From the IMG/VR virus record IMGVR_UViG_641201006_000001, positions 154,949-218,948 of that record: a stretch of 64,000 nucleotides of DNA; one strand, given 5' to 3'. A program made the position numbers and the translations under genes. Source of the DNA: a virus. Taxonomy: Duplodnaviria; Caudoviricetes. The notes beneath the pieces are model-generated. The model saw nothing but the letters and a program-made list of their open reading frames with translations. It ran no database searches and had not been told where the DNA came from. Shown here one piece after another: positions 6,077 to 64,000 of this stretch; the stretch's first letter is position 1; each line of letters begins with the position of its first letter.

Positions 6077-7189
6077 CTTACACATTTAAGTGTAATGGAC
6101 TATATCTTCATCCTCTATCGAGGAGCCTTGCGCTTCGAATGGTGCTAATCTCCATCCTACTCTACTCGCTTCCATCGTATGATGTGCTTTCGATAGTCTC
6201 TACACCTTCCCTATTGGGCTTGGCACGGTATTGGGAGCCTTCCGTCCACCGTTAGCCGTCTTACGACGACACCGCTTTTGCTTGCGTTCACAAGGTTATT
6301 TTACATACCATTACTGATATGGGTGACCCAAAACTTTTGTATTTGTTGTTTCACCTTATCTATATCATTTAACTCATCGTCTTCGATTGTTAATACACGG
6401 TATCCTTTACTGTGTAGTTCAGACAACTTACGTTTATCCTTATTTACATTCTTTTGTTTACTGTGCCAATATACACCGTTTACTTCTATCGCTAGTTTCT
6501 TACCTAAATAGAAGTCTACATTCCATCCTTCAACAACGTGATGTGTAAAATACACGATGTCTAATTCATCAAGTATTTCTTTTACACGACGTTCAGGTGT
6601 TGTTAGATGTGTCGATGTATCAATTTGTGGCTTAAACTTACCGTGTCTTTTCTTTCTCCATCGTTGGATAGCAACATCACTTACGCCATACTTTTCAGCA
6701 AGCTCAATTGATGAATACTTTGGATTATCAATATCCTTAAAGAATGCTTCATCTCTTGGTGTCTTCCCCGGACGATAGTGTGGGTTCTTCTCGATATATT
6801 GCTTCGTGTCGATACCCAACTTCTTCATTCGTTTCTGTACACCTGCAAGACTAATACCAATGTTATTGGCTAATTCATTTAAGGATATTTCTCCCTTCCA
6901 ATCTTTAATCGCTTTACGTTGTTCTGCGTTTAGTCTATCCTTCGGTACTTTTGTAAGGTCATGCTCATCAGCGTATTTCATAAGAGCATCCTTTCCGATA
7001 CCTAACTCTTTCGCAAGTTCACGTATGCTAATATCAGGAGAAGCGTAACCGTCGATAACGATTTGTTTTTGTTCAATAGATGGTGACCATGCTCGTGACA
7101 TATTATTACCTCCGACTTTAAGTAGTTACATTCGTTTACTTAAAGTCTAACATAGGTAAATACTATTGTCACGCACAAATACGAGTCCA
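6077..7189 (-). mobile_element. Group I intron in recA (1113 nt) carrying a homing endonuclease
   Basis: 5' exon ends ...TTCGGTGAT (U); intron ends ...TGTAAG (omega G); splicing restores FGD|PNVTTGG; P7 elements GAGACUA and AAGAUAUAGUCC (6097-6108). Confidence 0.93.
6301..7101 (-). CDS. Intron-encoded EDxHD (Vsr-like) homing endonuclease with N-terminal HTH repeats, I-Bth0305I-like
   Basis: Three HTH-like segments, then TTPE...VDF...IEVNGVYWH...D nuclease core; 266 aa; GGAGG SD. Confidence 0.9.
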   Translation of the reverse strand: MSRAWSPSIEQKQIVIDGYASPDISIRELAKELGIGKDALMKYADEHDLTKVPKDRLNAEQRKAIKDWKGEISLNELANNIGISLAGVQKRMKKLGIDTKQYIEKNPHYRPGKTPRDEAFFKDIDNPKYSSIELAEKYGVSDVAIQRWRKKRHGKFKPQIDTSTHLTTPERRVKEILDELDIVYFTHHVVEGWNVDFYLGKKLAIEVNGVYWHSKQKNVNKDKRKLSELHSKGYRVLTIEDDELNDIDKVKQQIQKFWVTHISNGM

Positions 7190-27262: not shown

Positions 27263-27610
27263 ATCTCTCACCTCCTCTATAGTATAAAGCAAAAGACACG
27301 GCATAAGTCACCGTGTCTTGCTGTAAGCGAGGAATAAGTTATCGAACCATCCTCATTATAACATCGTGAAATACTGTATAACAGGTACAATATTTTACAA
27401 TATCATACGTTTTTATCCATCAACCGAATAACCGTATCCTCCGTTCTGTTCGCGACCATACTAGGATTCCTCGAATTATTATGTATCAGAAATGGGTACA
27501 CGATAAACCAACCCTTGTTACCCATTAGGATGAGCCAATCTAAAAAGGGCGAAAAGCAAATGCTCATTCAATACACGATACGCTCATATACTCAATGAGA
27601 ATTTGATATA

Positions 27611-27726
27611 GTGCAACGGGCAGGATTCGAACCTGCGACTTTCTGTATACTCCGGTGACCTCTGTCATGAGCAGTAGTGACCCATCTCCGTATACAGACT
27701 GTTTTACCCCTAAACTACCGGAAGCA
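27611..27726 (-). ncRNA. tRNA-like RNA with greatly expanded anticodon arm
   Basis: D arm GTTT-AGGGGTA-AAAC; T arm GCAGG-TTCGAAT-CCTGC; anticodon arm TCTGTATAC-(37 nt)-GTATACAGA; imperfect acceptor stem. Confidence 0.7.
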
Positions 27727-27865
27727 TGGAGAAGAGATACTATGCAGTGCATCCCTTCAACAGTGTGTAAAATTTACATAACGATGAATCGGTTAAAGTC
27801 ATCGTGACATTTTAGCGAGCCTATCGGTTAAATATGGCTCTTGTGGTGGGCTTTGCCCATGATAT

Positions 27866-27892
27866 AAAAAGGAGAGGATATTTCACCTCTCC
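27866..27892 (-). terminator. Intrinsic terminator
   Basis: GGAGAGG...CCTCTCC stem followed by TTTTT. Confidence 0.65.
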
Positions 27893-28170
27893 GCTCCGAG
27901 TCATGTGATCCTATACAAATAACTCATAAGACTAAACTAACAATAATCGTAGAACCCAATACCAATAATAACCTATAGATAGAGACTAACACTTTGAAAC
28001 CAATTAATATTTTTAGCTAATTAGACCATTGAAAATTAATGAGATACAAAAAACATAGCCAACATATCAAGGCAGGTGTGATTTGCTTTGGAGATAGAAA
28101 TTTAGGCGGGCATTACGCCCATAGGAGGGAACACACGCAGGACTCCCCAGTTCTCGTGCATTCGCCTTTA

Positions 28171-28245
28171 GGTCATCATGTAAGGTTTCGAACCCCATTC
28201 TCTGACATTGTTAGGTCAGCGCTTTACCTATTAAGCTACGATGAC
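28171..28245 (-). tRNA. Atypical tRNA or pseudo-tRNA with an 8-nt anticodon loop CTAACAAT
   Basis: Acceptor GTCATCG/TGATGAC; D arm GCTT..AAGC; anticodon stem CTGAC/GTCAG; T arm TGGGG-TTCGAAA-CCTTA; 2-nt insert before the 3' acceptor strand; no encoded CCA. Confidence 0.7.
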
Positions 28246-28306
28246 ATGAACTCCGGTTACCCGGAGAACAATATAAATCAGTTTTTGTGTATGTAACGGT
28301 AACCTT

Positions 28307-53077: not shown

Positions 53078-56000
53078 TTAAGCTTGTTTGCGTAAACCTT
53101 TTGCTTCTACATATAATTCATAGTGAGCAAATTGTAATACTAATGCACGGAATGCAGGATTCATGTTCTCACGGCATACATCGAATACACCTTTAGCAAC
53201 AGCTTTCACACCAACAGATGCTTTACGTCCGTCGCCTAGAACAACAGTTACAACTGCACACTCATGACCAACAGCTAATTTACCAGTTTGTTCAACAGAT
53301 ACACCAGCAACATCCATTGCTTCTGTATCAAATTCTGCTGTCCAGTAGTCAGCACTTAAATCCATAGAGTCAAGAACATCGTTGTTGAAGTTTAATGTGA
53401 ATACTTCTGCTTCTTCTTGGTACTCTTCTGTTTCCATGTCGTCATCCATTTCGATAACTGCTTTTTCTTCTTCCATGTATCCAGTGTAAGCAGGTTCTTC
53501 TACATAGTATGGTTGCTCGTTAACAGATGTTGTAACAACTTCTTCTTGGCGATCCGCAACTTCTGTTACTTCCTCTTTCTTAGCTTTTTGTTTCTTCACT
53601 AGTACACGGTCGAATGTCATTTCTAAGAAGAATGCTTGCACTTCCTTCTCTTTACCTGCACGCTTCGCCATGTAAGTTGGTTCTAATTTATCTAAGTTTG
53701 TTACTGTTAATTCACATGCACCAGTTTCCGCTACGTATTGAGCAACGTTTGCTTTTTGGTCACGAGCAACAGCACCGATACGTTGTTTACCAGTATATAC
53801 GTTCACACGCATTTCACGGTCAACTTTCTTTTGAACAAGACGAATCTTACCTTCGTTCTTTTGTAGTAATGCAAGAACATCATGTGAAGATAAATCTTCG
53901 AACTTCCATCCTTTAATTTCGAATGTAGCGAACTGTTCGATTGGACGCTCAACTTGACGCTTCTCTGCAACAGACTTCGTACCCATGATGATGAACACTT
54001 GACCATTACGTTTGAATGTTTTGTAAGTACCGTTTGGTAATTTAGACTCAACACGGTAGTCTTCACCTTCTGATACATTACGGTAGAACTTTAATTCAGA
54101 AGGTACATCATCAATATGACCATCGAACTGAACTTTACGAAGTTTTGTTTTTGTGTCTGTAGATTTAGACACGTTTAATAATAAACCATCATAGCAAGTT
54201 ACCCACGGGAATGAGATAGACTTACCTTTTGATGTAGATGAGAAATATGTGTGTTGATAAGCAGCACCAGCGATGTCACGGATGTCACCGTCGATAGATT
54301 GTACTGCTCTTGTGTACTTATCCATGATATGAGAAATATGTGCTTGTTCCTCTTCATCAGTTAACTCCATGTCACGCATGTTCATTAACTCTTTACGGTA
54401 AGCACCTTCTAAGTCAGAGATGATAGGACGAATACGATTTACTTCTGCATCGTCAACATCAGCTAAGAACTCAAGTGTGAAGTCAACAGTTGTTTCTTTT
54501 GTTTCTTGCTTGAACTTCGTTTCCATATACTCTTTAACAGCGTTGAATAATTGACCTAACTGAGACTTAGATACGAAAACATTTTTCTCTTTGTTCACTT
54601 TCTTCATTACGTTGAACTGTTTCCAGTGTGGTTGCTCCATGATTTCTACATATTCAGGAACTTCAGGGAAGAATCCAGTTTTAGCGAAGTCAATTGACCA
54701 ACCTTGCATGAAACGTAAGATACAAACAATCTCATCAATACGAGCAGGTGTTAAAGACTCACCATTGATTTTACGCTCTTTCATGATTTTAGGATTGTTC
54801 GCAATATCTTTCCATGCAGTAGACATGTTTGTAATTTCACCAATAGATAATACATCTTCGTTGATGATTGTTGCTAAGTCATACTTGAAGATTTGTGCTT
54901 CTGAGTTCGGGCTTTCACCAGCTTTGAAACCAGCATCATATAACATTGGTAAACCAGTTTCAACTGCATCACAAATCTCGTCGTTCTCAACCATTGCTAC
55001 TTTATCACCATCTGTATCCGCTCCACCCATACGTGGTAATGTATCATCGAACGGGTTCATGATTAAGATGTCTTGGTTAAATACATGGTAAGCAGGTGCA
55101 TCAACAGTGTTTAGTACCACTGCTTCTGATTTATGGATTAATGGAGAACGGAAAGCAGCGAAGCGTGACTCTACTCCATTGTAGTAATATTCACCAGCTT
55201 TAAGTACAGCTTTTCTGCCGAACTGTAATTCAGGGCATGTAACGATATAAGGGTTCGCACCTTTCACTGGGATACGTCCTTTCGCCATGTCACCCACATA
55301 CTTCTCACGAGTTTTACGGATTGTTTCTTGTACGAAACGCTCACCAATCATGTCAGGATTCTCCGTTAATAACTCGATAACTTTTTGAATCTTACCACCT
55401 GCGGCATTCATCTTCTTATCGTACTCACCAGCATCACGTCCAGTGTCATACATACCTAAGAATGCTTTTGCATCATCAGCGTTAGAGAAGATAGTTTCTT
55501 TTAACTCTTTTAATGCACGTCCTGCGAATGTCTTAGGAGAAATCTTGTCATTGCGAAGTGCTTGCCAATATTGGTAACCCATGAACACTGTATCGTTTAA
55601 GCGGTTCTTCTGCCATAATACAATCTCAAGTTTTACACGTTTCTCTGATGGACACTCTTCACTCACGTAGTAAGGATTGAAGTTTTCTTTCCACATTGAA
55701 TCAGTGAACATGATGTCTTTCGTGAAGTCATACTTGTGTGTCTTCTCACCGAAGAACTCCATGCATTTACCAGTGTTACGAGTCTTACGTCCGTTGCAGT
55801 CTTTTGTCTCAAGGTTATGTGGGTATACAAGTAATAAACCTTTAGTGAAACCGAAACGAATTTGGAATGCAGATGGTACTTTACTCCATACTTTAAGGAA
55901 CTCTTCGTTACCTTCTACTTCTGCAATACGTACATCTTGGTTATAGATTTCTAACCAGTCTAATAACATTTCACGTTCGTTACGAGAGATTAACTCAAGA

Positions 56001-56734
56001 CGATGTGCTGTACGAACTGCGGCACTCGGTAACATTGTACCTTGACCATCTAATGGCTCGTAAGTATCAACATGTTGTTTGTATGTGCTTAGTTTACGAG
56101 TCTTCCAGTCATATACTTTGATGTCATGTTTACGTTCGATAGCGTAGTCAGGCATAATGTCGAATGAGAAGTCTTCGTTCGTGATCTCAATCGTTGATGA
56201 CTCTGCTAAACCGTAACGTGCTTCCATGTTTGCAATCTTCACTTCTTCCGGGAACTCTGCACCATAAGATACACCATCACGTACTTCTTTCACTGGTAAG
56301 CTAGTCATTAGACGTTTACCTACACGAGTCTGTGATGCTGATGTTAATACACGACGATATACTACACGAGTGCCGTCTAACTTAACGATAGTTAAACCTT
56401 TCTTTAGAATACGACGAATAGCAAGTTTCGCACTCTCTTTATCTTCTTTAGATAAACCACCATATGAGAAGTTCACTACAATGAACTCTTCTGCAAGACG
56501 TACAGTTACTTCTTCGTTCAGTTCGTTGCCGTTCTCATCAACAATAGTCTTAACACGTACTTCTGTCTTATGAGAGAACATACGGAATGCACGGTTTTCT
56601 GATACGAATGTTTTCACTGATTTGAATCCACGTTGACCATAGTTTGCTTCATAGAATACATAGTCACGTCCCTCTGCTTGTACATCTGCGATATTGATAA
56701 TTCCTACTTCAAATTGATTACGTTTCTTAGCCAT
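53078..56734 (-). CDS. YonO-like single-subunit two-barrel RNA polymerase (homologous to eukaryotic cellular RdRPs)
   Basis: DGQG, FQIRFGFTKG, FRSP and catalytic GGADTDGD; about 1218 aa; AAGGTGG SD. Confidence 0.9.
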   Translation of the reverse strand: MAKKRNQFEVGIINIADVQAEGRDYVFYEANYGQRGFKSVKTFVSENRAFRMFSHKTEVRVKTIVDENGNELNEEVTVRLAEEFIVVNFSYGGLSKEDKESAKLAIRRILKKGLTIVKLDGTRVVYRRVLTSASQTRVGKRLMTSLPVKEVRDGVSYGAEFPEEVKIANMEARYGLAESSTIEITNEDFSFDIMPDYAIERKHDIKVYDWKTRKLSTYKQHVDTYEPLDGQGTMLPSAAVRTAHRLELISRNEREMLLDWLEIYNQDVRIAEVEGNEEFLKVWSKVPSAFQIRFGFTKGLLLVYPHNLETKDCNGRKTRNTGKCMEFFGEKTHKYDFTKDIMFTDSMWKENFNPYYVSEECPSEKRVKLEIVLWQKNRLNDTVFMGYQYWQALRNDKISPKTFAGRALKELKETIFSNADDAKAFLGMYDTGRDAGEYDKKMNAAGGKIQKVIELLTENPDMIGERFVQETIRKTREKYVGDMAKGRIPVKGANPYIVTCPELQFGRKAVLKAGEYYYNGVESRFAAFRSPLIHKSEAVVLNTVDAPAYHVFNQDILIMNPFDDTLPRMGGADTDGDKVAMVENDEICDAVETGLPMLYDAGFKAGESPNSEAQIFKYDLATIINEDVLSIGEITNMSTAWKDIANNPKIMKERKINGESLTPARIDEIVCILRFMQGWSIDFAKTGFFPEVPEYVEIMEQPHWKQFNVMKKVNKEKNVFVSKSQLGQLFNAVKEYMETKFKQETKETTVDFTLEFLADVDDAEVNRIRPIISDLEGAYRKELMNMRDMELTDEEEQAHISHIMDKYTRAVQSIDGDIRDIAGAAYQHTYFSSTSKGKSISFPWVTCYDGLLLNVSKSTDTKTKLRKVQFDGHIDDVPSELKFYRNVSEGEDYRVESKLPNGTYKTFKRNGQVFIIMGTKSVAEKRQVERPIEQFATFEIKGWKFEDLSSHDVLALLQKNEGKIRLVQKKVDREMRVNVYTGKQRIGAVARDQKANVAQYVAETGACELTVTNLDKLEPTYMAKRAGKEKEVQAFFLEMTFDRVLVKKQKAKKEEVTEVADRQEEVVTTSVNEQPYYVEEPAYTGYMEEEKAVIEMDDDMETEEYQEEAEVFTLNFNNDVLDSMDLSADYWTAEFDTEAMDVAGVSVEQTGKLAVGHECAVVTVVLGDGRKASVGVKAVAKGVFDVCRENMNPAFRALVLQFAHYELYVEAKGLRKQA

Positions 56735-56846
56735 GATAAATTCCACCTTTTCATTTTTTATAGTTTTATAGTTTGATTCATACTCTGTCGTGTCTTGGGC
56801 GGACACAACAATCATCACTTACACGCCCAACCGTGCGAACGGTGGG

Positions 56847-57295: not shown

Positions 57296-57874
57296 GACTC
57301 TATATATAAGAGACACATATGAGAGTGTCTTGAATGACTTAGGTAACAATTTAGATACACTTAGGATATATAACAACCTAACACTTGAATGACTTGTGTG
57401 TGACAACACACAAGAGAAATACCTCCCAACCATGTTCAGCGTATGCTACGACTGTGCTTATCCACGTTTGGTACGACGAACCATAAATGGTACAACGTCC
57501 CAGTTTCCTTGAGTGACTTGTGGAGCAGGGAGAGAAAGGGACGAAAAGAAAACTATTTCGCCCATATACGTTCGTCGATTGCCCGATGATGCGTGCGAAC
57601 GCAATCATATAAAGCATCAAGCGTGCGAATGCGTTTCGAATGAAAGCAATGCGACGCAAAATGAAGATGCCATATATACAGGGACGACGAACCATAACTG
57701 GTAGAGCGTACCAGTTGTACAAGAACGACGCTGGGTGGTGAACGGCTCGCTCTGCTCGCCGTCGTAGGTCACTGCGTTTCCCCACAACACCCTTCCTGCG
57801 AATACGCCGGAGGCGGGGTATCACACAAGCAGAACCTCTATTGACTGCGAACACGGTCTGAATGTACGACCGTA

Positions 57875-58621
57875 CTACGCTCCACATCTTAACCATGCAT
57901 CTCTTATTTCATAACCGGTTGGCTGACGTTCATTGTTGCTAACGAACAACTCACGAAATTCGACCAACCACGATGCATCTACTGTTCCGCTGTATCTTGT
58001 CACTAGAGTATTTTCCTTACGCTCCGCAGGACTCACATTCTCCTGCTTCGGTTTATTATGCGTCTGTACTCGCTTACGCTCCTCTTGTTTTACTCGTACG
58101 GATGCTGGCATCTTACGTACTCGGACTAACGCTTTTACTATGCGTGCAATGTCACCATGCACTCCATTACTGAATGGCTTAAATGAATCAATCGCTGACT
58201 GTATCATCATTGGTTTCATAGGTTTCCCATCCACCTTTATATATGGTCGTGCATCAGATGGATTCCATCCAATCTTAACTGTTACTCCCTTTTGTTTGAA
58301 GACAACGCCCAGCTCGTTGCTACGCACATACTCAAATACTTTCGTGTACGCTGGTGCTGTCTTTTCTTCCGGCTCGCTGTCGCTCGCCGAATCATATCCT
58401 AGTTCCTCTGCTACATAGAAGTCATTCAGACACTCTATGCAAATGTGTCCATCATCCTCTGTGTAACATAGGTGACGAGACTCCTCATTGCAGAGTTCAC
58501 ATTGCTCGCTGACGCTCGCAAGTTTTACAGTCATCACTTTATAACTACGACCAAGTTTCTTTGTTTTCCAATCCATCCATAATACATATCTCTCTTCATT
58601 CACTACTGTTAAATTCATCAT
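57875..58621 (-). CDS. Hypothetical protein with a zinc finger
   Basis: CELC...CIEC; GGAGG SD. Confidence 0.75.
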   Translation of the reverse strand: MMNLTVVNEERYVLWMDWKTKKLGRSYKVMTVKLASVSEQCELCNEESRHLCYTEDDGHICIECLNDFYVAEELGYDSASDSEPEEKTAPAYTKVFEYVRSNELGVVFKQKGVTVKIGWNPSDARPYIKVDGKPMKPMMIQSAIDSFKPFSNGVHGDIARIVKALVRVRKMPASVRVKQEERKRVQTHNKPKQENVSPAERKENTLVTRYSGTVDASWLVEFRELFVSNNERQPTGYEIRDAWLRCGA

Positions 58622-58654
58622 TTTAAATTCCTCCAATTTATATGTTTTTTGTTT

Positions 58655-59345
58655 AAAGCCGGGGACTCATTAGTGGTAGCCTGTTCAGGGCATCTCAGAC
58701 TTCACCAATCGTGTCCATGAAGTTGCTAGGTCAACTGACACTGACTGAACAACTCCGTAGAGATTGTTTTCACATGTGCGTGCGTTATGTCTTCTAGTCA
58801 TGACGTACTCTCCCTCGACCAAGAGTTAGAGTCGGCGTCCTAGCTTCTTGCACTTCCCTCGAAAGGGTGGCTATCCACTAGGGGCGTCCTCCATTCTTGT
58901 TAGTACGGAGAGCAGCAATGACATACATGATGTCACGCAATGAGGACTCGTGTTGTCTTAACCCGAAGCAATCTGTGTCCTCACTGCTTCGGGATGTTAG
59001 CTGGTTGCTAAGTTTCCTAGTACCATGTTTGTCCGCTACCCTATCGCGCTATCACTGATTACGGAGTGACCATCCGGGATACTGAATAAATGCTACATAT
59101 ATCTCACGACATACTGCATTGCCTGATTCCTCAACAGATCTCTTGTTTATACCGACGTTGATTCAGACGTCGAGGCATACTTGTGAAACGGTGGATGCTT
59201 ACCGTGCCTGATAGGTCGCTACTCGTCTACTGTTATGAGTAACAACGATGTTAGGTCTGATGATTCTACGAGGGCAACCAACCCTCCTCTCTGGTGTAGT
59301 TATAGTTGACACCATAAGAGACACGATATGCTCATGTCTCCTAGC
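58655..59345 (-). ncRNA. Large structured non-coding RNA candidate (~690 nt)
   Basis: No ORF of 60 aa or more; relatively GC-rich; H-type pseudoknot and long-range helices. Confidence 0.65.
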
Positions 59346-59356
59346 TACCAACTATA

Positions 59357-61009
59357 TTACTGACGACCTAACAACATAGCTTCTAACTGTGTATTTAACG
59401 CTTCTTCATCTCCTGTCTCATGGAATAGTGCCATCGCATCACACAATGGTGTTGATACTAACTTCTCTGCTGTCATTCTTAATACGCCGTTGTCATCGAA
59501 GTCTACATCAGCTACTTGTTCATGATTGTTGTACGGCCATAACACTAAGTCTTTTGATACGAAGCCACTGTTCATCATGTTCTCTTTTGTATATACGGTG
59601 TATCCTCTCTTACGTAATGTATCAGCAACGATTTCCACACTGCCTTTATACTCAACACGACCTGTATATAACTCTTCAATGAATAAGGAATGATCTTCAC
59701 CAATGCGGATTAAGAATCTACCACCCCATCTGTTTTCACCTTCATCGAAATAGCCAACGATTGTCGCACCGGATACATTACCCAACACACCGATGTTGTT
59801 GTCATTCACCTTACCTAGTTCCCACTTCATACATGACGTCCACTCCTTATCTGTTGATACACGTAGTAGATCATCCTTCATACCACTGAACTTCACATGA
59901 CCTGTCTTCTTCGTATTACGTGTTTCTACAATGTGTTTTACTTTGCCTAATGGAATACGAATGTCATCACCCAATATTTCCATCACTTGCGGAAACTCTT
60001 TTTCAATTCTGTTGATATACTTCACGACGCTGATCTTTCTGCCATCATCTAGTTGTACCTTGTTCTCCATGAAATCATCCTCATCTAATCGTTGTAATCG
60101 TAATAGTCTCATTTGGAATATTACTGTGTGTTTGTGTAATGGATTCTCATAATCGACACGCAATGCACTTGATACATCTCGCAATGCTGAATGGAACATC
60201 TCATGTGAGTGATTGATTAACTCAATGTCGAATGAATCTACAAGCAATGGATGTGCTGCTACTTGTTTGTGATTCGCTATCTTCATCATGTGATTGATTA
60301 ATACTCTTGGATTGTTATCTAATCGTGCTAAGTAATACATATCAACCATCATCACATTACCGATGTCGTACTTACCTGTGAATGTCATCTCTCTATCTAC
60401 GTATGCATACTTCTTAGTTACATAGTTTTGTAGAACACCTTGTTCATATAGATACTCACAATAGTCTCTGCTTAACTTGTATTCATGTCCGAGTTTGAAT
60501 CCATACTTCTTCGCACATAATGATGCTCTGATATAACCTGTTGGTTCGAACTTGAGTGGACGAATGATACGTTGTTTGAATCCAATCTCTGCTGGTTCTG
60601 TGATAACAACCTTGCCGTCGTAGTAACATGCAGTGATGTTAATGTCGAAGTCCTCTTGTACATACTGACGAATATCATCTGTGTTCACCATCATGATCTC
60701 TACACGATACTTACCTATCGTACCTTTTAATACTGATACAATTTTACTGATCTCAATGACACGTACTGATTCATCATCATCTTCTACTGTGATACTTGGA
60801 CGTTCTCTGATTACCTCGCTGAACATAAAGCCCTTGCTTAATACGTGATATAATACCTCTGACTTACATGCGTCGGATGTAGATACGAACACATCAATGT
60901 CATTAGGTTCTTTACCCATCAATGCATCTAATACACATCCACCTGCGATAATACCTTTGAAACCTTTTACCACTTTGTATACTTCTTTAATACCTGTACT
61001 TGCTGTCAT
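59357..61009 (-). CDS. CCA-adding/poly(A)-polymerase-type nucleotidyltransferase fused to an unknown C-terminal domain
   Basis: IAGGCVLDALMGKEPNDIDVF (motif A DxD) and EDFDINI (RDF-like); C-terminal WTSCM domain. Confidence 0.8.
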   Translation of the reverse strand: MTASTGIKEVYKVVKGFKGIIAGGCVLDALMGKEPNDIDVFVSTSDACKSEVLYHVLSKGFMFSEVIRERPSITVEDDDESVRVIEISKIVSVLKGTIGKYRVEIMMVNTDDIRQYVQEDFDINITACYYDGKVVITEPAEIGFKQRIIRPLKFEPTGYIRASLCAKKYGFKLGHEYKLSRDYCEYLYEQGVLQNYVTKKYAYVDREMTFTGKYDIGNVMMVDMYYLARLDNNPRVLINHMMKIANHKQVAAHPLLVDSFDIELINHSHEMFHSALRDVSSALRVDYENPLHKHTVIFQMRLLRLQRLDEDDFMENKVQLDDGRKISVVKYINRIEKEFPQVMEILGDDIRIPLGKVKHIVETRNTKKTGHVKFSGMKDDLLRVSTDKEWTSCMKWELGKVNDNNIGVLGNVSGATIVGYFDEGENRWGGRFLIRIGEDHSLFIEELYTGRVEYKGSVEIVADTLRKRGYTVYTKENMMNSGFVSKDLVLWPYNNHEQVADVDFDDNGVLRMTAEKLVSTPLCDAMALFHETGDEEALNTQLEAMLLGRQ

Positions 61010-61071
61010 GTTTATTCTCTCCTTTTAATTTAAATAAGGAGCCGAGATATACCCGACTCCGATGATTGTTA

Positions 61072-61746
61072 TTATTTATTTAATACTTCTGCTACTTTCA
61101 GTTTCCATACACCTCTTGTTGGCTTACCTTGTTTACCTAAGTCTCTCATGTATGCTTGATACCCACTGTTGAACTTACTACCTACCTTCTTGAACTTGTT
61201 CGCTGCATATACTTCTGCACCAATCTCTTTATGTGCTTCGATGATAAGATTAGAGATTCTTTCATCCATTGCTGATTCATATACTTTAACTTCCTTCACT
61301 TCCTCTTCTTCTTCCTGTGGAGTGATAACAGGCTCTTCTTGTTGTGGCACGATACTTACTTGTCCTTGCATCATACCTTCCACGATACCACGCATGATAC
61401 CTTGTACTGCATCTGCTAATTCCTCTTGTACAACTTCTCTTACTGTTGCTCTGATCTCCTCTTTAAACACTGGCATTACATCCTCTCTAACTGTTTTGAT
61501 GATTGTATTCTGTACGTTGTTTGCCCACATTTGTGTTAGTGTCCCAATACTATCACGAGCGATAACAGCGAATATATCCTCTGTTGATACTGGCTTCTTC
61601 TTAATAGTTGATACGATTTCTTTTGCTACTTCCATTTCAGTTTTCTGTTTTAACTTACCTGCACGAATGATTTCTTCATCACGCTTGTTTGCACCATAAC
61701 GTTTATTCCATCTGTCTAACCCTGATTGTGTATTCTTCATAGTCAT
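61072..61746 (-). CDS. Hypothetical protein
   Basis: 224 aa; AGGAGG SD. Confidence 0.75.
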   Translation of the reverse strand: MTMKNTQSGLDRWNKRYGANKRDEEIIRAGKLKQKTEMEVAKEIVSTIKKKPVSTEDIFAVIARDSIGTLTQMWANNVQNTIIKTVREDVMPVFKEEIRATVREVVQEELADAVQGIMRGIVEGMMQGQVSIVPQQEEPVITPQEEEEEVKEVKVYESAMDERISNLIIEAHKEIGAEVYAANKFKKVGSKFNSGYQAYMRDLGKQGKPTRGVWKLKVAEVLNK

Positions 61747-62090
61747 TAGATTGTATCCTCCTGTGTAGATGCTGTTTCAGCCATCATCATTATTTGTTCA
61801 AACATAATCTCGAATCTTACTTCACTTCCTCCATTACCTTGTGCATTCAGTCGAATACCATGATGTGCATACATTTGTTTAATAATCTTTGCTTCATTTG
61901 TGCTTTTTAATCTTACGTTTGTTTTGATTCTTGTTACAGTCAATCTGTCGATACCAAGAGATAACATGTACGATACGCAATCTTTTAAATAAGCCTTAGC
62001 TTCTTGTTGTTGGTCTAGGATTAGCTTTTGTGCTACGTTGTGTGATAATACCCCTTCAATCATTGAGATTGTTTCATTTGACAACTTCAT
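61746..62090 (-). CDS. Hypothetical protein
   Basis: 114 aa, coupled. Confidence 0.7.
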   Translation of the reverse strand: MKLSNETISMIEGVLSHNVAQKLILDQQQEAKAYLKDCVSYMLSLGIDRLTVTRIKTNVRLKSTNEAKIIKQMYAHHGIRLNAQGNGGSEVRFEIMFEQIMMMAETASTQEDTI

Positions 62091-63115
62091 TATTCCTTAT
62101 CCCCTTTACTAATTAGTTCACTTGTTGCACGTAATGTTCCTGATGCTAAATCCACTCCTGCATGACCTACTTCTCCGCCTAGCTTGATAACTGTTCTACC
62201 GGCACGTTCTGTTACATTCAATACTTCTCTTGTTAAGCCGAGTGCAGATTCTAATACACTGTTTAATAATTGTGTTCCTCTGTCTACACCTGCATGACCG
62301 TACTTATCTACTACAGCAGCTCCTTTCAATAGCCCTTGTGCGGCACTTAATGTTAAACCTTTGTACTTCGTTCTGATTAATTCCTGTACATCACCTCCCT
62401 TCAATGCATGTAATTTCTCTTCCACTGAACGGTACTCTAATACTAGTTCGTTGTACTTTTGAGGCTTAGTGATATTCTTGTTCATCTCTTGTTGAATATG
62501 ACCTAGTTGTTTATCTAGCCCATCAATGACCTTTTGCTTATCCCCTTCTGTTAATACCAATTCCTGTACTGCTTCTTCTACTACCTGTATGCTATCCTCT
62601 GCTACTGCCTGTGCTGTTGCATCTGTTACTTGTTGCATCTTCTCTGCTGCCATAGCCAATACTTCTTGTTCTTTCTTAGCTAGTGCTTGTTTCGTTAACT
62701 CTCTATGCTGTGCTGTTAGTTCTTCCTGCATTGCTTTAACCTCTTCCTCTGTGTATACCTTACCTTCTGTTGTTGCTGCTACTTGTTCTTTAGCCATGTT
62801 CATTACCTCCATTTGTTGTTGTATTGCAGTGAATTGATTGATGATCTCTTTCAGTATCTCTGTACGCATACCCATGTTGACGTTAGCACCTAAGTTGTTA
62901 GCCTGTTGTACTAGTGATAATCGTTGACTATGCATTACTGTTACTCGTTGATATAGCTTGATGATGTTCTCTTTCTTTGTTCTATCACCTTGATACTCTA
63001 CTAATTGTTTTTCTGCTACTACCTTGATGTTTAAGCCCATATCCTTACATAGCGCCCCTGTAATACGGTTAATATCCTTTACTGTCATACCTTCGATTGT
63101 TTTTAAGTCTGTCAT
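62090..63115 (-). CDS. Hypothetical coiled-coil protein
   Basis: 341 aa; AAGGAG SD. Confidence 0.75.
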   Translation of the reverse strand: MTDLKTIEGMTVKDINRITGALCKDMGLNIKVVAEKQLVEYQGDRTKKENIIKLYQRVTVMHSQRLSLVQQANNLGANVNMGMRTEILKEIINQFTAIQQQMEVMNMAKEQVAATTEGKVYTEEEVKAMQEELTAQHRELTKQALAKKEQEVLAMAAEKMQQVTDATAQAVAEDSIQVVEEAVQELVLTEGDKQKVIDGLDKQLGHIQQEMNKNITKPQKYNELVLEYRSVEEKLHALKGGDVQELIRTKYKGLTLSAAQGLLKGAAVVDKYGHAGVDRGTQLLNSVLESALGLTREVLNVTERAGRTVIKLGGEVGHAGVDLASGTLRATSELISKGDKE

Positions 63116-63136
63116 AATAATTAGCTCCTTTTATAA

Positions 63137-63283
63137 TTAGTTGTTTTTGTTTTTATTGATTAACTCACCTAGTGTTGGTGCTAGTTTAATACCTTGTTTC
63201 TTTTTGACTATGCTAGTTGATACCTTACCGATACCTGCTTTCTCCACTGTGTTAATGAATGTAACTACTGCTCTCTTCTTCAT
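63137..63283 (-). CDS. Small basic protein (48 aa)
   Basis: Below the cutoff; AGGAGGAG SD; MKKRAVVTFINTVEKAG... Confidence 0.6.
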   Translation of the reverse strand: MKKRAVVTFINTVEKAGIGKVSTSIVKKKQGIKLAPTLGELINKNKNN

Positions 63284-63295
63284 ACCTAACTCCTC

Positions 63296-63916
63296 CTATG
63301 CAAATAAGTTTTTAATCTTACCTAATAGACTACTGAATACACCCTGCTTACCTTCTCCTGGTGGTAATTCATTGTTGTCCTTTAGTCTCTTGATGTAGAT
63401 GATACGTTTCTCTAACTCAGGTACTAGATGATGGATACCTAGTCTGATACCCTCTGCTCTCATGATGTTAAGCATTAGTAATACACTCTCCTTTCCACAC
63501 TGTTGTACTGCATACTCATCACACTTAAACTCTTGCTCTGTCACCTCGTGCTGTTCTGTTAGATGTCCAGTAGGATACATGATATGACCTAGTTCATGAG
63601 ATACTAGTGCTTGTCTTACATACTGGTTACTGTTGAATGATTTATAGTCATATACAATAATCATGTAATCTAAGTAGTATCCTGTTAGTTCAGCGATTTG
63701 TTCATTGTCATACACTGTCATCATTACAGTTAAGATACGAGTGTCGATGTGGTGCTTCTCGATGTCCTCAATGGATAGTTGATGATGACTTGCTAAGTCT
63801 TGTGGTTGTTCGATGATAGCAACATGTTCTGTCTTGCCGTTGATGTTTACAGTGAATACTTCTTTCACCGATTGTCTTACTTCCATTACTTCTGCTTGCG
63901 TTAGTTTGTCTGTCAT
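63296..63916 (-). CDS. Zinc metallopeptidase-like protein
   Basis: HELGH...EFKCDEYA (HExxH...E..D). Confidence 0.75.
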   Translation of the reverse strand: MTDKLTQAEVMEVRQSVKEVFTVNINGKTEHVAIIEQPQDLASHHQLSIEDIEKHHIDTRILTVMMTVYDNEQIAELTGYYLDYMIIVYDYKSFNSNQYVRQALVSHELGHIMYPTGHLTEQHEVTEQEFKCDEYAVQQCGKESVLLMLNIMRAEGIRLGIHHLVPELEKRIIYIKRLKDNNELPPGEGKQGVFSSLLGKIKNLFA

Positions 63917-64000
63917 TTGTCATTCCTCCATTAGTTTAGGTGTAGTCAAAAGGGGTGGGGCATGAAACAACCCTATACCCCCATTGCTATATATAAGACG

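Follow-up and report, generated by a model that had tools for sequence, protein, structure and literature searches.

A candidate large structured RNA between two terminal-repeat genes of a phage with a 218,948-bp genome

What occupies the 735 nucleotides (nt) that lie between a nucleotidyltransferase (NTase) gene and the gene for a 248-residue protein, ORF248, in the terminal repeat of a large phage genome? We addressed this question in a window of 64,000 nt made up of bases 154949-218948, the right end of a 218,948-bp virus genome classed with direct terminal repeats; positions given below are those of the window unless the genome is named. The stretch at issue, at 58622-59356, is free of sizeable open reading frames (ORFs) and holds on its minus strand a candidate large structured RNA with a folded core at about 58671-59354 (~685 nt). 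We think that this region is probably selected as RNA, and that it is a new large non-coding RNA (ncRNA) in a terminal repeat. Our preferred reading, to which we give a rough probability of 0.45, is that it is a functional minus-strand RNA of ~685 nt, of the ROOL/GOLLD kind but unrelated to those RNAs, which is carried in an NTase-RNA-ORF248 transcript and acts via a bound protein, with ORF248 as the better candidate for that protein. A preliminary description of the locus had proposed that the RNA could be a dedicated substrate, template or scaffold of the NTase.

The genome's first 6,479 bases recur exactly from genome position 212470 to its right end, forming a direct terminal repeat (DTR), and its G+C content is 41.8%. 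The Bacillus thuringiensis phage 0305phi8-36 has been published with the same length of 218.948 kb and the same repeat of 6.479 kb, together with 247 ORFs (PMC3357382), and it is tabulated at 218,948 bp and 41.8% G+C, like the genome studied here (PMC12474458). The right DTR copy covers 57522-64000 of the window and encloses the NTase gene, the RNA stretch and ORF248. Given that the RNA candidate lies inside the DTR, it is present in two copies per genome, and we found the ORF-free stretch, taken as 720 nt, at genome positions 1116-1835 and 213585-214304. The large ORFs of the DTR are all on the minus strand, directed at the left genome end.

Within 58637-59356 there is no ORF of 60 or more amino acids (aa). 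The start of ORF248 is most likely the ATG at 58621, which follows GGAGG at 58630-58634, so the non-coding stretch measures 735 nt. The preliminary description had reported an ORF-free region after the NTase gene, and these 735 nt between the NTase ORF and ORF248 bear it out. Seven small ORFs of 25-53 aa can be read in the gap, and none of the seven is found in a collection of 15 billion proteins that does contain the neighboring proteins, from at least 20 contigs. The stretch is among the genome's two longest gaps without ORFs of 70 aa or more. Its composition also sets it apart from the flanking genes, with 46-51% G+C versus 36-41%, and the coding-type GC skew of those genes vanishes within it. 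We found no iterons and no notable tandem or dispersed repeats inside the stretch, and when the remainder of the genome was searched with the RNA by blastn, only chance-level matches appeared (best E 0.46), with no long complementarity.

We compared the folding of the stretch with that of shuffled sequences, all of which preserved dinucleotides. As minus-strand RNA it reached -232.4 kcal/mol, with a z score of -5.0, and none of 20 shuffles folded as well; the plus strand gave a z score of -2.45, and DNA folding parameters gave -2.83 and -1.90. G-U pairs make up 27 of the 230 predicted pairs, which explains the asymmetry between the strands and speaks for an RNA encoded by the minus strand. The 687-nt core alone had a z score of -4.46 (0 of 40 shuffles folded as well), and its ensemble diversity, measured as the mean pair distance, was 89.9 versus 168 +/- 41 in the 40 shuffles, the lowest of which stood at 100. 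Five 720-nt coding controls from the same strand ranged from +2.9 to -2.4, and a comparable fold was found only in a gap that holds tRNA-like genes (z -4.7). With more than 500 nt, no sizeable ORF and an exceptional, well-defined fold on one strand, the candidate shares these properties with "ornate" ncRNAs of bacteria and phages.

In the minimum-energy fold, the two ends of the RNA are brought together by a closing helix, P1, in which the minus-strand sequence UAGU-U-GGUAGC (59344-59354) pairs with 58671-58680 at pair probabilities of 0.82-1.00. A long irregular arm of ~170 nt (58770-58943, minus strand) is capped by a UUCG hairpin at 58856-58867, and its helix probabilities are 0.8-0.99. Beside it stands a minus-strand hairpin at 58962-58993, whose stem of 9-11 bp is formed by CCCGAAGCA (58962-58970) and TGCTTCGGG (58985-58993) with a pair probability of 0.95. 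The 14-nt loop of this hairpin contains UGAGGAC, and its complement GUCCUCA, on the same strand at 58941-58947, is a candidate pseudoknot strand (duplex -11.4 kcal/mol). This predicted 7-bp pairing is compatible with the nested minimum-energy fold; GUCCUCA can instead pair with GGAGGAC at 58887-58893 (-9.9 kcal/mol), and 20 of 2000 dinucleotide shuffles contained an arrangement of this type, a perfect 8-bp hairpin and, within 60 nt, a 7-nt complement of its loop.

The preliminary description had named the NTase ORF, the hairpin, its loop complement and a long-range helix, and we found all four at the positions it gave. The 5' strand of the long-range helix, UAGUGG-A-UAGCC (58869-58880, minus strand), is indeed complementary, apart from one bulged A, to the 3' strand GGCUACCACUA (58671-58681, minus strand), but 59344-59354 is about as good a partner for that 3' strand, and the minimum-energy fold prefers it, in P1, and pairs part of the 58869-58880 strand locally (58877-58882 with 58839-58844). 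Enforcing the long-range helix yields -226.1 versus -235.8 kcal/mol for the minimum-energy fold, about 10 kcal/mol worse.

To what extent is this RNA conserved? A scan of metagenome contigs returned three near relatives (L004-L006), all of them near-identical. The first, L004, is 96.9% identical to the window over 8 kb, and its differences are very unevenly distributed: 1 in 720 nt of the RNA stretch (0.14%), 4 in 762 nt of ORF248 (0.52%, counted over the longer TTG-start frame at 57875-58636), 62 in 1653 nt of the NTase gene (3.75%), and 0.9-11.4% in the other DTR genes. Synonymous divergence is 0.136 for the NTase, 0.065 and 0.071 for two other DTR genes, and 0.019 for ORF248. At 0.0014 changes per site, the RNA is at about the level of non-synonymous sites and is the slowest-evolving part of the locus. 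Among these close relatives, its nucleotide conservation thus exceeds the neutral expectation, and it is shared with the downstream ORF248.

The stretch, or part of it, is contained in 20 public runs from 11 studies, and we compared contigs of four public runs with the window; the totals per piece are complete, the per-site differences for runs X7 and X18 are lower bounds, and parts of the stretch left uncovered in runs X18 and X19 carry no meaning. Run X15 differs at no fewer than 2 RNA positions, at least 7 positions of ORF248 and at least 24 in the first 543 nt of the NTase gene. In run X7, 11 differences fall in the 2068 nt of ORF248 and the RNA (57300-59367) versus 54 in the 1652 nt that hold the NTase gene (59449-61100). 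Three of the variants seen within the RNA fit the predicted fold: one at 59330 lies in a hairpin loop, a G to A change at 58881, read as C to U in the RNA, leaves U-G where the local helix 58877-58882/58839-58844 had C-G, and an extra T after 58644 falls in an A-rich tail.

One more divergent relative was found, on a 1947-nt contig of run X15 (record 5). It matches the window at ~86% over 58866-58946 and at ~80% over 58504-58612, the opening codons of ORF248, and between the RNA piece and ORF248 it has 251 unrelated letters in place of the window's 253. These matches indicate that a diverged phage retains the RNA piece, the ORF248 gene and the spacing between them. A blastn search with the locus against 50,697 phage records and against plasmids gave no relatives.

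We also asked whether the stretch belongs to a known class of RNA. The preliminary description had proposed a comparison with covariance models; Rfam 15 (4227 models) gave no match at gathering score in the region, which therefore corresponds to no described RNA family. Two matches at E <=10 were rejected as chance-level, one to a tobamovirus IRES (17.5 bits, cut-off 50) and one to mir-30 (15 bits, cut-off 50.2). Across the whole genome, the group I intron model RF00028 found nothing in the DTR and recovered, as a positive control, an intron elsewhere in the genome, and the group II model RF00029 found nothing in the genome. ARAGORN predicted no tRNA or transfer-messenger RNA (tmRNA) in the stretch. 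The hallmarks of tmRNA, RNase P and group I introns are accordingly absent, as had been noted before: Rfam with these models included, RF00028 and ARAGORN all come back blank in the stretch. ROOL, GOLLD, OLE and HEARO are presumably included among the Rfam models. The stretch looks like a large structured RNA outside all described families. In the literature covered, on this phage, on large phage RNAs and on pairs of NTases and RNAs (the original genome description lies outside that coverage), there is no description of the element, and the accessible parts of PMC2147016 and PMC3357382 mention neither a large RNA nor this gap.

How might such an RNA be expressed? Between 57800 and 61300 we found no promoter-like site on the minus strand, and the sole terminator-like hairpin, at 61038-61060 on the minus strand, lies 29 nt upstream of the NTase start. 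Given that no promoter-like or terminator-like site separates them, the NTase gene, the RNA and ORF248 may share one transcript. Under our preferred reading, transcription would run leftward through the NTase gene, then the RNA and then ORF248, and the RNA, perhaps after processing, would fold into a closed multi-arm structure and act as a protein-binding RNA. ORF248 would be its best partner candidate, and the NTase a possible, unsupported second partner. The RNA would be supplied from two copies per genome, in a block that resembles early genes.

ORF248 (57875-58621, minus strand) has an N-terminal zinc-ribbon-like module, CxxC...CxxC, followed by a basic linker and a conserved region that makes up its C-terminal two thirds. 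From residue 6 of the longer TTG frame it matches phrog_36578, a family of unknown function, and its homologues, all on Logan or ENA assemblies, fall into ten clusters of 41-99% identity, the divergent ones at 41-63%. Where the zinc module is missing, homologues have a weakly SAP-like N-terminus (E 0.003). Profile searches of ORF248 against Pfam and the PDB gave nothing significant, tblastn against phages gave no match, and its structure model is poor, with a mean predicted local distance difference test score (pLDDT) of 56.9. Given the CxxC...CxxC module and the SAP-like N-termini of homologues, it is plausible that ORF248 binds nucleic acid. Because its gene is co-conserved with the RNA and the linkage between them is retained, ORF248 is the better-supported candidate partner.

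Several observations weigh against our preferred reading. No promoter-like or terminator-like site bounds the RNA, and contigs of run X15, a metatranscriptome, cover 57320-61067 evenly as one piece and may derive from DNA. Three global topologies lie within ~14 kcal/mol, a two-domain topology being ~14 kcal/mol worse than the minimum-energy fold. The RNA is >99% identical in every relative that could be read, so no helix is backed by a compensatory change, and what we observe is constraint rather than covariation. A variant at 59085 would break a predicted helix, albeit a weak one (pair probability 0.45). The block of low divergence also takes in ORF248, the comparison with ORF248 synonymous sites amounts to only 3-4 events, and some of the conservation could stem from a recent recombination, sweep or exchange involving block 57600-59356. 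Finally, the sequences searched contain the element in one narrow phage lineage only.

The co-conservation with ORF248 raises the alternative that the stretch is a cis-acting leader, a very long 5' untranslated region that controls the translation or stability of ORF248 and is perhaps autoregulated by the ORF248 protein. The fold does reach the ORF248 ribosome-binding site, where a hairpin of CCGG (58659-58662) with UUGG (58633-58636) is predicted beside GGAGG with a pair probability of 0.94. No terminator-like site stands between the RNA and ORF248, and the divergent relative, with its 251 letters for 253, keeps the distance from the RNA piece to the gene. The pairing at the ribosome-binding site is, however, short and rich in G-U pairs, the constraint is uniform across the 720 nt rather than confined to the 3' end, and a closed multi-arm fold of ~700 nt is far larger than any bacterial leader or riboswitch we know of. 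We consider a leader rather unlikely, if a serious contender.

The pairing of the RNA with the NTase, as proposed in the preliminary description, depends on what kind of enzyme the NTase is. Its gene (59357-61009, minus strand) encodes 550 aa, with a head and neck at aa 2-212, a helical bundle at aa 264-368 and a family-specific alpha/beta domain at aa ~369-490, and the sequence contains VQEDFDINITACYYDG. The assignment to class II NTases of the CCA-adding enzyme and poly(A) polymerase type, as a divergent member, was supported: motif A, GG..D...DxD, aligns with that of CCA-adding enzymes, and aa 2-212 superpose (VIA) with a Z score of 13.3 and a root-mean-square deviation of 3.0-3.9 A over 163-183 residues. 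A match to phrog_1614, nucleotidyltransferase, has an E value of 2e-14, and the Pfam family PolyA_pol (PF01743; cut-off 23 bits) scores 20.9 bits in a protein scan and 23.1 bits in a six-frame search. Foldseek with the AlphaFold model (mean pLDDT 76) retrieved CCA-, CC- and A-adding enzymes and poly(A) polymerase (E 2e-7).

The claim that the C-terminal part of the NTase is unrelated to such enzymes was likewise supported. The structural match stops near residue 212, beyond which the protein is specific to its family; aa 264-368 form a generic helical bundle, and aa 369-490 form a conserved alpha/beta domain with the motifs WTSC, LGNxSG and GRFLxRxGE. This domain is weakly GNAT-like in an Atlas structure search, with template-modelling scores of 0.55-0.59, below the tool's bar for naming a fold. 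In comparison with class II tRNA nucleotidyltransferases, the body and tail are thus replaced by the helical bundle and this weakly GNAT-like domain. In canonical CCA-adding enzymes, RRD of motif B and EDxxR of motif D are the nucleotide-templating residues. The NTase reads, by inspection, QEDFDIN and EPTGYIRA in place of the RRD and EDxxR arginines, the alignment itself covering motif A only. All 11 family members compared share A22, G23, G24, D28, D37 and D39, and the third acidic residue is also kept family-wide. Given that the catalytic acidic residues are kept, the NTase is probably an active enzyme, as judged from its sequence.

The family is tiny, with 34 matches at E <=1e-3 among 1.84 billion representatives. 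Ten of the matches are full length, one at 92% identity and nine (P0002-P0010) at 28-37%, and these nine distant homologues are all on Logan or JGI contigs. A tblastn search of the NTase against phages gave only 2 weak N-terminal matches (23% query coverage). Scans of viral contigs with the NTase, ORF248, P0002, P0006 and alignments A2 and A3 found no family relatives, and scans of genome contigs with the NTase and alignment A3 found no relatives. One viral contig (L001) has a 45-residue match to the NTase N-terminus inside a 1014-aa ORF and was rejected as a family member. Seven of the nine distant homologues end, after a low-complexity linker, in an acidic tip of the form ...D(D/E)LPF or ...DFPF, which the window's NTase does not have. 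Such an acidic ...DDLPF tail resembles the C-terminal tip of bacterial single-stranded DNA-binding protein (SSB). By analogy, the tip suggests recruitment of these distant NTases to SSB-binding replication or repair proteins.

Several properties of the NTase speak for a dedicated NTase-RNA module. Its gene directly adjoins the RNA, shares its strand and is separated from it by no terminator-like site, the catalytic GG...DxD and third acidic residue are retained, and its head and neck are typical of enzymes that act on structured RNA 3' ends. The ends of the RNA are predicted to pair together, as in tRNA-like substrates, and some GNATs, the fold that the C-terminal domain weakly resembles, use aminoacyl-tRNA (PMC13219725). 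Adjacency, however, is the sole link between the two, and the RNA itself contains no tRNA-like element according to Rfam and ARAGORN. The synonymous sites of the NTase gene diverge ~100-fold faster than the RNA, which is mildly unfavorable, and the divergent relative keeps the RNA piece beside its ORF248 homologue. In addition, the 3' tail of the NTase gene has been exchanged right at the RNA boundary: the last ~30 codons (59367-59449) are swapped in relatives, with 99 bases in place of 81 in the X7 contig, cluster 1 includes forms of both 550 and 556 aa, and only a few bases separate the end of the swap from the conserved RNA. NTase alleles thus appear to have been reshuffled against a constant RNA, and the SSB-like tips of the distant homologues hint at DNA-replication partners instead. 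Given these points, we regard a dedicated NTase-RNA module as quite unlikely.

The second long ORF-free gap of the genome, at 27305-28246 (734 nt), also folds exceptionally well on the minus strand, with a z score of -4.7; it contains a weak 104-nt tRNA match at 27617-27720, and a second tRNA match, in which ARAGORN reads a 4-base anticodon, lies just outside it at 28174-28245. The tRNA-like RNAs at these two sites are possible NTase substrates.

A bolder scenario would unite both neighbors in a new class of phage RNA that works as a ribonucleoprotein. In it, the GNAT-fused CCA-like NTase would treat the paired ends of the RNA like those of an outsized tRNA-like substrate, adding nucleotides and perhaps transferring acyl or aminoacyl groups, with ORF248 holding the fold, and the two DTR copies would be switched on immediately upon infection and serve host take-over or defense escape. 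We consider this scenario a long shot.

Could the stretch instead function as DNA, for instance as a replication origin or primer site, an injection-pause region or a packaging signal of the terminal repeat, with the RNA fold being incidental? The terminal repeats of large phages can hold non-coding control regions, such as the injection-stop region of T5, and the stretch lies 1.1-1.8 kb from the left genome end, inside the DTR. In addition, the authors of PMC2147016 pointed to an excess of non-coding DNA in the right arm and argued that it is functional in non-coding ways, and they noted that making the terminal repeat requires a separate synthesis step. The stretch, however, has no iterons or internal repeats, is G+C-rich rather than A+T-rich, and folds far better as minus-strand RNA (z -5.0) than as DNA (z -2.8 and -1.9), and the repeated motifs that resemble end signals lie elsewhere, at 57329-57716. 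A DNA element is, in our view, improbable.

A functionless spacer or lost-gene remnant, kept similar through recent exchange of 57600-59356 and folding as a by-product of its composition, would agree with the extension of the low-divergence block into ORF248, with a mosaic of divergence across the DTR (0 to 11.4% per gene) and with the closeness of all relatives read, but we think it has little chance of being right: composition is controlled for by the dinucleotide-preserving shuffles, not one of which folds as well, the RNA has ~10-fold fewer changes than ORF248 synonymous sites in two comparisons, the more distant relative still retains part of it, and packed phage genomes tend to shed useless DNA (PMC2147016).

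The end-signal-like motifs are direct repeats that straddle the DTR edge at 57522, in a stretch of up to 56% G+C. They comprise a 36-nt pair at 57470-57505 and 57681-57716 (86% alike) and a 15-nt trio at 57329, 57384 and 57508, and we regard them as candidate end-recognition signals. An ORF at 57378-57896, across the DTR boundary, is perhaps not a real gene. Searches of NCBIfam and PADLOC gave no meaningful match for seven proteins, namely the six encoded wholly in the DTR and the boundary-spanning ORF172. Elsewhere in the DTR, the minus-strand ORF at 62090-63115 is hypervariable, with 117 differences in 1026 nt (11.4%) versus L004, concentrated in ~400 nt (62600-63000); its neighbors differ by 1-3%. 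This ORF may encode a diversifying early protein.

Outside the DTR, intergenic regions of the genome carry a repeated hairpin with the plus-strand core CGTGCGAACG; variable short inverted repeats lie on either side of the core, and TACAAAA-like bases come before them. Eighteen copies have inverted repeats, spread over genome positions 144,270-211,780 (17 within 9752-56832 of the window, and one at genome position 144270). On the gene (minus) strand, the element reads as stem-CGUUCGCACG-stem followed by UUUUGUA, and it stands just upstream of ribosome-binding sites, including that of an RNA-dependent RNA polymerase (RdRP)-like gene (56832). These hairpins are probably the 14 phage-specific promoter candidates of 21 bp reported in PMC2147016; they also resemble a terminator or processing hairpin. 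Two stem-less copies of CGTGCGAACG lie near the left edge of the DTR, at 57592 and 57622. No copy of the hairpin flanks the RNA or any gene inside the DTR, which fits a separate, probably early, expression class for the DTR genes.

Two further features of the window involve RNA. The RdRP-like gene (53078-56818, minus strand) ends ~700 nt outside the DTR and encodes 1246 aa that match the Pfam family RdRP, PF05183, at E 1.3e-18. This is the family of RNA-dependent RNA polymerases of the eukaryotic cell type. The gene is orf99, a putative phage RNA polymerase, in PMC2147016, and by tblastn its sole phage relative is in Bacillus phage BUCT082, at 23% identity. A group I intron match to RF00028 at 6078-6326 on the minus strand (32 bits against a gathering score of 50, E 1.7e-7) presumably represents the recA intron with the homing endonuclease I-Bth0305I (PMC3239194).

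Few elaborately folded RNAs of more than 500 nt have been described from bacteria and phages, and what most of them do is still open. If our preferred reading is true, this set would gain a further unrelated example, one housed in an orphan jumbo phage's terminal repeat, with an unusual NTase of tRNA-enzyme-like type on one side and a protein that likely binds nucleic acid on the other. If the stretch is merely a leader or a spacer, it would be of local interest only. The system can be cultivated: B. thuringiensis is a host for 0305phi8-36, of which deletion mutants have been obtained (PMC3357382).

How, then, does the candidate compare with RNAs that have been described? It resembles ROOL and GOLLD in being a large (>500 nt), ORF-free and intricately folded candidate in a Firmicute phage. 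It differs from them in lacking sequence or structure homology (Rfam at E <=10) and in its setting, which is between protein genes in a terminal repeat, whereas ROOL and GOLLD are typically beside tRNA genes (PMC9241854). ROOL and GOLLD are backed by covariation and expression, and the candidate is known from folding and conservation. GOLLD, ROOL and OLE form homo-oligomers made of RNA only (PMC12286853), and this is one possible mode of action for the candidate too. Staphylococcus phage K offers a second likeness, as a large Firmicute phage with long terminal repeats and several ncRNAs (lnc001, lnc002 and small RNAs); three of its small RNAs map in the repeat, whose genes are the earliest transcribed (PMC9241854). 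The phage K ncRNAs were found by RNA sequencing, and the long ones adjoin tRNA genes, in contrast to a candidate recognized from its folding and conservation only; in a blastn comparison with 50,697 phage records they have no sequence relation to it. A third comparison is with the pRNA of phi29, a structured RNA of ~170 nt that comes from near the left genome end, is transcribed leftwards and is part of a protein machine. At ~685 nt and with no Rfam match, our candidate differs from the pRNA, but like the pRNA it would be a structured phage RNA near the left end of its genome, read leftward.

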